Source of the DNA: Escherichia coli
GTDB lineage: Bacteria > Pseudomonadota > Gammaproteobacteria > Enterobacterales > Enterobacteriaceae
Length of the DNA: 64,000 nucleotides
Direction: 5' to 3' (one strand)
Assembly (NCBI RefSeq): GCF_050920415.1
Contig: NZ_CP169309.1
Part shown: one piece after another, positions 21,086 through 26,049 of the stretch
Layout of the letters: every line of letters starts with the position of its first letter
How positions within the stretch are numbered: position 1 is the stretch's first letter
Position numbers and translations under genes: made by a program
Notes under the pieces: generated by a model
What the model saw: the letters and a program-made list of their open reading frames with translations, nothing else
Told to the model about the DNA's origin: nothing
The model's database searches: none

Positions 21086-22447
<1,362 letters not shown>

Positions 22448-22586
22448 AACGTGAGGAAATACCTGGATTTTTCCTGGTTATTTTGCCGCAGGTCAGCGTA
22501 TCGTGAACATCTTTTCCAGTGTTCAGTATGGTGCCTTGCACGGTAATTATGTCACTGGTTATTAACCAATTTTTCTTGGGGGATAA

Positions 22587-23726
22587 ATGAGCGCGGGAAG
22601 CCCAAAATTCACCGTTCGCCGCATTGCGGCTTTGTCACTGGTTTCGCTATGGCTGGCAGGCTGTTCTGACACTTCAAATCCACCGGCACCGGTCAGCTCC
22701 GTTAATGGCAATGCGTCTGCAAACACCAATTCTGGTATGTTGATTACGCCGCCGCCGAAAATGGGGACGACGTCTACAACGCAGCAACCGCAAATTCAGC
22801 CGGTACAGCAGCCACAAATTCAATCTGCACAACAACCGCAAATCCAGCCGGTGCAGCCAGTTGCTCAGCCGCCGGTACAGATGGAAAACGGACGCATCGT
22901 CTACAACCGTCAGTATGGGAACATTCCGAAAGGCAGTTATAGCGGCAGTACATACACCGTGAAAAAAGGCGACACACTTTTCTATATCGCCTGGATTACT
23001 GGCAATGATTTCCGTGACCTTGCTCAGCGCAACAATATTCAGGCACCATACGCGCTGAATGTAGGTCAGACCTTACAGGTGGGTAATGCTTCCGGTACGC
23101 CAATCACTGGTGGAAATGCCATTACCCAGGCCGATGCAGCAGAGCAAGGAGTTGTGATCAAGCCTGCACAAAATTCCACCGTTGCTGTTGCGTCGCAACC
23201 GACAATTACGTATTCTGAGTCTTCGGGTGAACAGAGTGCTAACAAAATGTTGCCGAACAACAAGCCAACTGGGACCACGGTCACAGCGCCTGTAACGGTA
23301 CCAACAGCAAGCACAACCGAGCCGACTGTCAGCAGTACATCAACCAGTGCGCCTATCTCCACCTGGCGCTGGCCGACTGAGGGCAAAGTGATCGAAACCT
23401 TTGGTGCTTCTGAGGGGGGCAACAAGGGGATTGATATCGCAGGCAGCAAAGGACAGGCAATTATCGCGACCGCAGATGGCCGCGTTGTTTATGCCGGTAA
23501 CGCGCTGCGCGGCTACGGTAATCTGATTATCATCAAACATAATGATGATTACCTGAGTGCCTACGCCCATAACGACACAATGCTGGTCCGGGAACAACAA
23601 GAAGTGAAGGCGGGGCAAAAAATAGCGACTATGGGTAGCACCGGAACCAGTTCAACACGCTTGCATTTTGAAATTCGTTACAAGGGGAAATCCGTAAACC
23701 CGCTGCGCTATTTGCCGCAGCGATAA
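22587..23726 (+). CDS. nlpD: Lipoprotein NlpD (LysM domain plus degenerate M23 peptidase domain; activator of cell-wall amidase)
   Basis: 379-aa ORF with a lipobox (LAGCS), a Q/P-rich repeat linker, LysM and a C-terminal LytM domain. Confidence 0.95.
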
Positions 23727-23788
23727 ATCGGCGGAACCAGGCTTTTGCTTGAATGTTCCGTCAAGGGATCACGGGTAGGAGCCACCTT
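23200..23788 (+). promoter_or_regulatory. Approximate region of the major rpoS promoter and long 5' leader lying inside the nlpD coding sequence
   Basis: Published K-12 work places the main rpoS promoter inside nlpD with a leader of roughly 570 nt; coordinates are approximate and no -10/-35 was pinpointed here. Confidence 0.4.
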
Positions 23789-24781
23789 ATGAGTCAGAAT
23801 ACGCTGAAAGTTCATGATTTAAATGAAGATGCGGAATTTGATGAGAACGGAGTTGAGGTTTTTGACGAAAAGGCCTTAGTAGAAGAGGAACCCAGTGATA
23901 ACGATTTGGCCGAAGAGGAACTGTTATCGCAAGGGGCCACACAGCGTGTGTTGGACGCGACTCAGCTTTACCTTGGTGAGATTGGTTATTCACCACTGTT
24001 AACGGCCGAAGAAGAAGTTTATTTTGCGCGTCGCGCACTGCGAGGAGATGTTGCCTCCCGCCGCCGGATGATCGAGAGTAACTTGCGTCTGGTGGTAAAA
24101 ATTGCCCGCCGTTATGGCAATCGTGGTCTGGCTTTGCTGGATCTTATCGAAGAGGGCAACCTGGGGCTGATCCGCGCGGTAGAGAAGTTTGACCCGGAAC
24201 GTGGTTTCCGCTTCTCAACATACGCAACCTGGTGGATTCGCCAAACGATCGAACGGGCGATTATGAACCAAACCCGTACTATTCGTTTGCCGATTCACAT
24301 CGTAAAGGAGCTGAACGTTTACCTGCGAACCGCACGTGAGTTGTCCCATAAGCTGGACCACGAACCAAGTGCGGAAGAGATCGCAGAGCAGCTGGATAAG
24401 CCAGTTGATGACGTCAGCCGTATGCTTCGTCTTAACGAGCGCATTACCTCGGTAGACACCCCGCTGGGTGGAGATTCCGAAAAAGCGTTGCTGGACATCC
24501 TGGCCGATGAAAAAGAAAACGGCCCGGAAGATACCACGCAAGATGACGATATGAAACAAAGCATCGTCAAATGGCTGTTCGAACTGAACGCCAAACAGCG
24601 TGAAGTGCTGGCACGTCGATTCGGTTTGCTGGGGTACGAAGCGGCAACACTGGAAGATGTAGGTCGTGAAATTGGCCTCACCCGTGAACGTGTTCGCCAG
24701 ATTCAGGTTGAAGGCCTGCGCCGTTTGCGCGAAATCCTGCAAACGCAGGGGCTGAATATCGAAGCGCTGTTCCGCGAATAA
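23789..24781 (+). CDS. rpoS: RNA polymerase sigma factor sigma-S (sigma-38)
   Basis: 330 aa from the ATG at 23789 ([17 protein letters not shown]...); sigma-70 family regions 2-4; codon 33 is GAG (Glu). Confidence 0.96.
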
Positions 24782-24901: not shown

Positions 24902-25309
24902 CTATTTGCTCATCATCTTGCGCACCAGCTGCATAAACAGCTCCTGCTCTTCTCCACTCAAACGCCCCAAAAATTCCTCATCCACACTGTCGCCAATCGG
25001 TATCGCCGCAGCAAGTACCTTTTCTCCTTCGGCAGTCAGCCAGACAAAGCGTCGCCGCTTATCAGCGGTGTCATGTTCACGTCTGACTAAGCCACGATTT
25101 TCCATTCTTGCCAACATTTCTGCCAGCGTTGCTTTGGTGCTGACGGCTGCTTCCATCAGTGCCACCTGTTCGATACCAGGTTTATCAGCAATGGCGCGCA
25201 TCACCGCGTACTGTGGTTTGGTCAGGTCAGGTAACTCGTGCTGCCAGCGGGCCGTATGCTGCTGAAAAAGCTGTCGTAACTGATGGAACGCTTTATTTCG
25301 TAACGCCAT
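24902..25309 (-). CDS. MarR/SlyA-family transcriptional regulator
   Basis: 135-aa ORF with winged-helix MarR-like sequence; divergent from the decarboxylase operon. Confidence 0.8.
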   Translation of the reverse strand: MALRNKAFHQLRQLFQQHTARWQHELPDLTKPQYAVMRAIADKPGIEQVALMEAAVSTKATLAEMLARMENRGLVRREHDTADKRRRFVWLTAEGEKVLAAAIPIGDSVDEEFLGRLSGEEQELFMQLVRKMMSK

Positions 25310-25455: not shown

Positions 25456-26049
25456 ATGAAACTGATCGTCGGGATGACAGGGGCTACCGGTGCGCCTCTT
25501 GGTGTGGCATTACTGCAAGCGCTGCGGGAGATGCCGAATGTCGAGACTCATCTGGTGATGTCGAAGTGGGCGAAAACCACTATTGAACTGGAAACGCCTT
25601 ACAGCGCTCGCGATGTTGCCGCCCTCGCTGACTTCAGCCATAACCCGGCGGATCAGGCTGCGACCATCTCTTCCGGCTCCTTTCGTACCGACGGCATGAT
25701 CGTTATTCCATGCAGTATGAAAACGCTCGCCGGTATCCGCGCTGGTTACGCCGATGGTCTCGTAGGGCGCGCGGCGGACGTCGTGCTCAAAGAAGGCCGC
25801 AAACTGGTGCTGGTGCCGCGTGAAATGCCGCTTAGCACCATCCATCTCGAAAATATGCTCGCACTTTCGCGCATGGGCGTGGCGATGGTGCCGCCGATGC
25901 CTGCCTTTTATAACCATCCCGAAACGGTAGATGACATTGTCCACCACGTGGTAGCCCGCGTGCTGGATCAATTTGGCCTCGAACATCCTCACGCCAGGCG
26001 CTGGCAAGGGTTGCCGCAGGCCCGGAATTTTTCTCAGGAGAATGAATAA
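25456..26049 (+). CDS. ecdB: UbiX/Pad1-like flavin prenyltransferase (decarboxylase B subunit)
   Basis: 197-aa ORF (MKLIVGMTGATGAPLGVALLQAL...), UbiX family. The ecdB name is as recalled for the E. coli O157 homologue. Confidence 0.85.
   Translation: MKLIVGMTGATGAPLGVALLQALREMPNVETHLVMSKWAKTTIELETPYSARDVAALADFSHNPADQAATISSGSFRTDGMIVIPCSMKTLAGIRAGYADGLVGRAADVVLKEGRKLVLVPREMPLSTIHLENMLALSRMGVAMVPPMPAFYNHPETVDDIVHHVVARVLDQFGLEHPHARRWQGLPQARNFSQENE

Follow-up and report, generated by a model that had tools for sequence, protein, structure and literature searches.

Three head-to-tail copies of a 24-bp sequence lie within the nlpD gene of Escherichia coli, and the question raised by this locus is whether such a coding repeat changes in length between strains, by which route it would do so and what a change would mean for the lipoprotein that carries it. 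An earlier note on this DNA had regarded the array as a likely site of length polymorphism by slipped-strand mispairing. The repeat was followed here from a stretch of 64,000 nucleotides of an E. coli genome (contig NZ_CP169309.1; hereafter the window) into complete genomes and protein databases.

The nlpD gene and its repeat array

The gene and the domains of its product occupy the following positions of the window.

22587 to 23726, plus strand: nlpD coding sequence, 379 aa, murein hydrolase activator and outer-membrane lipoprotein (open reading frame, Pfam, RefSeq annotation of matching genomes)
22587 to 22664, plus strand: signal peptide with lipobox L-A-G-C (residues 23–26; Cys26 codon at 22662–22664)
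22953 to 23081, plus strand: LysM peptidoglycan-binding domain, residues 123–165 (PF01476, E = 2.6e-12)
23421 to 23702, plus strand: LytM/Peptidase_M23 domain, residues 279–372 (PF01551, E = 4.6e-33)

Both Pfam matches exceed the curated cut-offs, and in 35 homologues the lipobox region is invariant at S20, L21, A24, G25 and C26. On the upstream side lie truD, surE and pcm, and on the downstream side rpoS, an order (surE-pcm-nlpD-rpoS) also found in the RefSeq-annotated matching loci, and the identical or near-identical loci are annotated there as 'murein hydrolase activator NlpD'. Lipobox, domains, gene context and annotation all agree with the name nlpD that the earlier note had given to the gene. 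The protein of the window is 98% identical to the common E. coli NlpD, which was found experimentally to activate the periplasmic amidase AmiC (PMC5533458). Its relatives in the PDB, DipM and EnvC, cover residues ~235–379 at most, that is, the LytM domain and a short preceding stretch.

Two start codons are annotated for this gene. With the ATG at 22587, which follows GGGGGA, the product is the classical lipoprotein precursor of 379 aa; the current RefSeq (PGAP) start is an internal TTG at 22632 (codon 16), which gives 364 aa and drops KFTVRR, the positively charged n-region of the signal peptide. As a result, databases hold two series of NlpD lengths, 15 aa apart (379/364 and 363/348).

The three units, cagcaaccgcaaattcagccggta, cagcagccacaaattcaatctgca and caacaaccgcaaatccagccggtg, read exactly as the earlier note had quoted them, as imperfect tandem repeats at 22782–22853, in frame within the 379-aa open reading frame and encoding NlpD residues 66–89. 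The elements of the array are as follows.

22782 to 22805, plus strand: repeat unit 1, QQPQIQPV, residues 66–73
22806 to 22829, plus strand: repeat unit 2, QQPQIQSA, residues 74–81, the most divergent unit
22830 to 22853, plus strand: repeat unit 3, QQPQIQPV, residues 82–89, 21/24 identity to unit 1
22854 to 22877, plus strand: degenerate fourth unit, QPVAQPPV, 13/24 identity to unit 1
22845 to 22862, plus strand: mini-repeat of two tandem 9-bp copies, cagccggtg/cagccagtt (QPV QPV), where the +9 and −9 bp alleles vary
22785 to 22795, plus strand: first copy of the 11-nt exact direct repeat CAACCGCAAAT, in which most one-unit alleles have their crossover
22833 to 22843, plus strand: second copy of the same 11-nt repeat, 48 bp from the first
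22799 to 22808, plus strand: first copy of the 10-nt exact direct repeat GCCGGTACAG, matching the 72-bp deletion and duplication alleles
22871 to 22880, plus strand: second copy of the same 10-nt repeat, 72 bp from the first

The head-to-tail repetition is real and well above chance. Tandem Repeats Finder reports a single array (22782–22857, period 24, 3.2 copies, 69% matches, score 89), and the period-24 self-match of the units, 33 of 48 positions, is the highest in the 64-kb window (mean 13.0, sd 3.2). Among 1000 codon shuffles of nlpD, which gave 20.9 ± 1.8 and a maximum of 28, none reached this value. The array also runs past position 22853, where the earlier note had ended it, through the degenerate fourth unit, which is involved in the alleles with a 72-bp deletion or duplication, and through the QPV/QPV mini-repeat.

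Pairwise identity is 18/24 between units 1 and 2 and 15/24 between units 2 and 3. The QQPQIQ core is the same peptide in all three units, with every nucleotide difference at a synonymous third position, and units 1 and 3 differ in three codons, all synonymously. With identical cores that are spelled by different synonymous codons, the triplication is maintained at the peptide level. It is also old, because the NlpD of E. fergusonii has three units too, which places the triplication before the split of that species from E. coli.

It could be argued that the repeat has a regulatory function as DNA or RNA, acting for instance on the nlpD-rpoS operon, and that the peptide is incidental, given that the main rpoS promoter sits within nlpD, as is well established (Lange and Hengge-Aronis 1994, as cited in PMC2736372). 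The rpoS leader is about 567 nt long as published, and with rpoS starting at 23789 the promoter presumably lies some 440 bp downstream of the repeat, away from the array. The amino acids are kept and the third codon positions diverge, the opposite of what is expected of a DNA motif; an Rfam search of the repeat at E ≤ 1 gave no match, and the RNA fold of 22770–22890 was no better than that of shuffled sequences (z = 0.12). Furthermore, rpoS is not flagged as a pseudogene in RefSeq in TW14359 and other strains that have lost two of the three units. A regulatory element is thus very improbable.

The window itself carries a rare allele, in which unit 2 ends in SA instead of AT and the next segment reads AQPPV instead of AQQPV. 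Only 8 of 5,420 complete genomes match it with at least 99% identity over 22680–22960 (281 nt), most showing 94–96%. The wider surE-pcm-nlpD-rpoS locus (21180–24460) differs from typical E. coli loci at 57–64 of the 115 sites that vary over 3.3 kb; the count rises to 78 against one haplotype with a divergent surE tract of its own. Only 7 sites separate it from the closest genome, that of EC42405, a bovine strain from France. The annotation of that genome makes rpoS a pseudogene, interrupted by an internal stop, while the rpoS of the window (23789–24781) is intact and encodes 330 aa from MSQNTL. The stop in EC42405 is not the classic amber at codon 33, which reads GAG there, in the window and in every other fetched locus but the K-12-type one (CAG). 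On the 3' side of rpoS, the window has a MarR-family open reading frame (24902–25309, minus strand) followed by a flavoprotein (UbiX-like) one (25456–26049, plus strand), and in the albertii-like genome GCA_026283405.1 this pair is followed by a UbiD-family gene. The pair appears to be one of the variable inserts already described for the mutS-rpoS region (cf. PMC4209514).

Length alleles in E. coli, Shigella and related species

A total of 5,426 complete E. coli genomes were searched, and the locus was present in 5,420. Synthetic alleles were used as queries; blastn bridges the 48-nt gap at the cost of a lower identity, so that variant classes fall into separate identity bands. Megablast, even with a short junction-specific query, joins or splits overlapping pieces and hid most one-unit alleles. 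In a spread sample searched with the native query, 58 of 60 genomes matched at exactly the query length, one carried a 72-bp deletion and one matched only query positions 1–272.

The collection is heavily skewed to clinical and outbreak strains, so its frequencies are not population estimates. The three-unit allele (379 aa) is found in ~98.6% of the 5,420 genomes, and all length variants together in ~1.4%. The one-unit allele (−48 bp, 363 aa) occurs in about 61–64 genomes (~1.2%), 59 of which were identified individually as single-piece, full-length matches of 155 nt, with band and coverage counts of 61 and 65. The five-unit allele (+48 bp, 395 aa) is carried by a single genome, that of the baboon strain PapRG-04-4, and the 72-bp deletion (355 aa) also by one, strain Z142-6, where it is in frame (QQPQIQ/PVQ...AQQ/PVQMEN). 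One QPV is lost in seven genomes (−9 bp, 376 aa) and gained in four (+9 bp, 382 aa). Two-unit and four-unit alleles were searched with synthetic queries, for which true variants would outrank the listed matches, and none was found in the 5,420 E. coli genomes. All genomic variants change the length by multiples of 3 bp and keep the reading frame intact, with products of 355–395 aa.

The one-unit allele is present in the O157:H7 strains TW14359, EC4115, SS17, SS52 and JEONG-1266, and in isolates not related to them that came from chicken, human, pig, goose, frog, giant panda and water. A single O157:H7 lineage seems to account for roughly half of the one-unit genomes listed; the label O157:H7 is carried by 11 of the 59, and the other members of that lineage were assigned by strain name and genome size. 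In the protein database, one-unit proteins form a cluster of 191 members and are found in Shigella dysenteriae (30 contigs), S. flexneri (22 contigs) and S. boydii. The database also holds an E. coli protein of 360 aa that combines one unit with the QPV loss, and another (P0003) with the reciprocal 72-bp duplication.

The repeat is therefore not invariant, as the earlier note had anticipated: 1, 3 and 5 units exist in the 5,420 genomes beside the −72, −9 and +9 bp alleles, and the comparison over E. coli and Shigella that it had proposed found one-unit alleles in both. Its expectation has to be corrected in two respects, since the polymorphism is rare, with three units strongly dominant, and since units change in E. 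coli by 48 or 72 bp, never by one unit of 24 bp.

Assemblers can collapse tandem repeats, and it might be asked whether the variants are assembly or sequencing artefacts of an invariant array. This is hardly conceivable, as any sequencing read is much longer than 72 bp, the one-unit allele recurs in ~60 complete and independent genomes produced by many laboratories, among them the long-standing references TW14359 and EC4115, and its junctions are clean and in frame, besides the size of the one-unit protein cluster.

Outside E. coli and Shigella, E. albertii proteins have five units in two orders (PI PV SA SA PV and PI PV PV SA PV). The albertii-like genome mentioned above, whose flanks are ~91% identical to those of E. 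coli, has seven, of which units 1–3 equal units 4–6 base for base, indicating a recent perfect duplication of 72 bp. In Citrobacter, Salmonella, Enterobacter, Kosakonia and others, the place of the units is taken by a degenerate segment rich in Q, P and V, and Yersinia NlpD is devoid of the whole region (PMC2736372).

Junctions and recurrence

The observed steps equal the spacing of the longest exact direct repeats in the array, which are the 11-nt pair 48 bp apart, the 10-nt pair 72 bp apart and the additional 9-bp pair. As a consequence of the synonymous divergence of the units, exact matches between adjacent units are all shorter than 9 nt, and only units 1 and 3 keep a long one. What remains in most one-unit alleles is a hybrid unit with the start of unit 1, CAGCAACCGCAAAT, and the end of unit 3, CCAGCCAGTG, which places the crossover inside the 11-nt match. 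The one-unit alleles of PEC145 and PEC411 retain the whole of unit 1, and in them the crossover lies further 3', in GTGCAGC. The 48-bp deletion thus has two distinct junctions, both clean, in frame and within microhomologies, and the alleles as a whole come in reciprocal pairs (−48/+48, −72/+72 and −9/+9). Because the junctions fall in microhomologies, we infer that slipped-strand mispairing lies behind the length alleles, although short-homology recombination would yield the same products.

The recurrence of the one-unit allele was followed in an alignment of 3.2 kb, from surE to rpoS, of 16 loci and the window. The one-unit TW14359 differs from the three-unit O157:H7 strain Xuzhou21 at three sites, one of them the hybrid-unit site 22796; the one-unit PEC145 differs from the K-12-type three-unit locus at three sites, and the one-unit 2013C-3342 from 2014C-3061 at four. 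Among themselves, the one-unit haplotypes are 10–41 SNPs apart, with differences on both sides of the repeat, and the allele is found on at least five local haplotypes. The most parsimonious interpretation of these haplotypes and of the two kinds of junction is that the deletion occurred several times independently; a junction shared by different haplotypes might conceivably also have been passed on in very short recombination or conversion tracts. The one-unit strains AMSHJX01, ESBL 15 and 22-245 share a separate peculiarity, about 25 SNPs clustered in a stretch of ~160 bp in surE (equivalent to 21401–21563 of the window), which looks like an imported recombination tract.

In several respects the array resembles coding VNTRs: its copies are repeated head to tail beyond chance, their number differs from strain to strain (1, 3 and 5, with 5 and 7 in E. 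albertii-like genomes), and the indels are bounded by short exact direct repeats, recurrent and reciprocal. A tandem coding repeat whose copy number varies between strains could suggest a contingency locus, that is, a hypermutable VNTR serving phase or antigenic variation of a surface protein. However, all changes are multiples of 3, which leaves no on/off switching, the defining mark of such loci; the units match at only 69%, with no long perfect tracts, and one state prevails in 98.6% of genomes. Moreover, the documented role of NlpD, AmiC activation, is periplasmic (PMC5533458; bioRxiv 10.1101/2021.01.05.425367). A contingency function is accordingly most improbable, and with its low unit identity, rare polymorphism and lack of single-unit steps in E. 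coli and of frameshifts, the array also differs from a typing-grade VNTR and behaves like a weak coding VNTR.

A probable spacer within the tether of NlpD

NlpD is laid out as an N-terminal linker, the LysM domain, a second linker and the dLytM domain, and both linkers are predicted by DISOPRED to be disordered (Tsang et al., PMC5533458). The first of them, the tether that joins the lipid anchor to LysM (residues ~27–113), contains the repeat in its second, distal half, and in the window it comprises 75 residues rich in P, Q, S, T, N and G between Cys26 and GRIVYNR. Measured from the lipidated Cys to GRIVYNR, its length across Enterobacteriaceae is 57–101 aa, mostly 66–76, the value of 57 being natural to C. 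freundii. An AlphaFold2 model from a 35-sequence alignment was poor throughout (mean pLDDT 34.7, with even LytM below 50), and it tells nothing about linker disorder. The second linker (residues ~168–270, window 23090–23400) is rich in Thr, Ser, Pro and Val and shows point substitutions between alleles (T/A at several sites), with no length variation among the fetched loci.

In the outer-membrane lipoprotein RcsF, the length and disorder of the linker count for Lol-dependent sorting to the outer membrane, and its sequence does not (bioRxiv 10.1101/2021.01.05.425367). The NlpD repeat belongs to the same kind of region, inside a linker predicted to be disordered (PMC5533458), as described for RcsF, Pal and NlpD, and by analogy with RcsF its sequence is probably unimportant. 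Deletion of NlpD residues 29–64 causes ~60% retention in the inner membrane and impaired cell separation (El Rayes et al., bioRxiv 10.1101/2021.01.05.425367); this segment ends just before the repeat (66–89). The 'long' linker class of that study starts above 22 residues, and the natural NlpD variants keep 51–59 tether residues or more.

Within the otherwise variable linker, residues 49–60 (window 22731–22766) form a near-invariant motif of 12 residues in 35 Enterobacteriaceae NlpD sequences, with G50, M51, I53, T54 and P55 invariant and S49, L52, P56, P57, K58 and G60 at least 90% conserved. It falls within the 29–64 segment whose deletion impairs outer-membrane sorting. As the N-terminal linker alone has a weak affinity for midcell (Tsang et al., PMC5533458), this motif could be a functional short linear motif.

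The explanation that is very probably correct is that the three Gln/Pro-rich octapeptides serve as a spacer of the tether rather than as a DNA or RNA element, with rare in-frame length alleles driven by microhomology and near-neutral or weakly stabilised. According to this proposal, synonymous drift would have erased most of the homology between adjacent units of an old triplication, leaving the 11-nt, 10-nt and 9-bp matches, at which slippage or short-homology recombination would generate the in-frame −48, +48, −72, +72, −9 and +9 bp alleles. These would be tolerated because a disordered tether of ~57–100 residues presumably still works. Since the variants keep 51–101 tether residues, far above the lower bound of the 'long' class, a change of length in the spacer is most likely tolerated and nearly neutral. 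The rarity of variants would agree with near-neutrality or with weak stabilising selection on tether length, and the dominance of three units fits such weak selection or merely a low mutation rate.

It has also been considered that the tether acts as a molecular ruler whose length is adaptive, so that the loss of 16 residues, seen in the O157:H7 TW14359/EC4115 lineage, in Shigella and in several commensal and poultry lineages, would be selected for altering the reach of NlpD to septal peptidoglycan, the activation of AmiC or properties of the envelope; in its broader form, this loss in O157:H7 and Shigella and the expansion to 5–7 units in E. albertii would both tune the reach of NlpD for AmiC activation. 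The recurrence of an identical 48-bp deletion on at least five haplotypes, its fixation in a successful O157:H7 lineage (TW14359/EC4115) and the fairly conserved tether length across genera would be in line with selection, and Tsang et al. floated, as one attractive possibility, that outer-membrane NlpD is kept beyond the reach of peptidoglycan (PMC5533458). However, microhomology alone predicts the recurrence, the one-unit total is only ~1.2%, with no visible pattern of host or source (cattle, chicken, human, panda, water), and C. freundii has its short tether naturally. The presence of two long unstructured linkers also makes it unlikely that anchoring alone limits reach (PMC5533458). An adaptive length, in either form, is therefore unlikely, although if it were true the natural alleles would offer a ready test of the 'reach' model coupling outer membrane and peptidoglycan.

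One feature speaks against a pure spacer. Throughout E. coli, E. fergusonii and E. albertii, the QQPQIQ core of the three units is perfectly conserved, beyond the need of a sequence-indifferent linker, and this hints at a sequence-specific role, for example as a binding motif or through a PPII conformation.

The repeat itself is already known. According to its citation in PMC2736372, the 1994 paper that first described the NlpD lipoprotein (Ichikawa et al.) noted an 'unusual amino acid repeat', and the Pro/Gln-rich repeat region of E. coli NlpD was noted again in 2009 (PMC2736372). The array of the window is this N-terminal repeat, in the same gene, at the same position and with the same peptide, in a rare allele. 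No published account of length polymorphism of the nlpD repeat was found in the part of the literature covered, which included the paper on o454-nlpD polymorphism (PMC4209514), and the allele catalogue is a small descriptive addition.

For the biology of NlpD, the catalogue means that three units are near-fixed and that the rare steps of 48, 72 and 9 bp are those predicted by the remaining microhomologies. The one-unit allele marks an O157:H7 lineage that includes TW14359 and EC4115, and the natural alleles with 1, 3, 5 and 7 units are handy reagents for the effects of tether length on the sorting of NlpD or its activation of AmiC.
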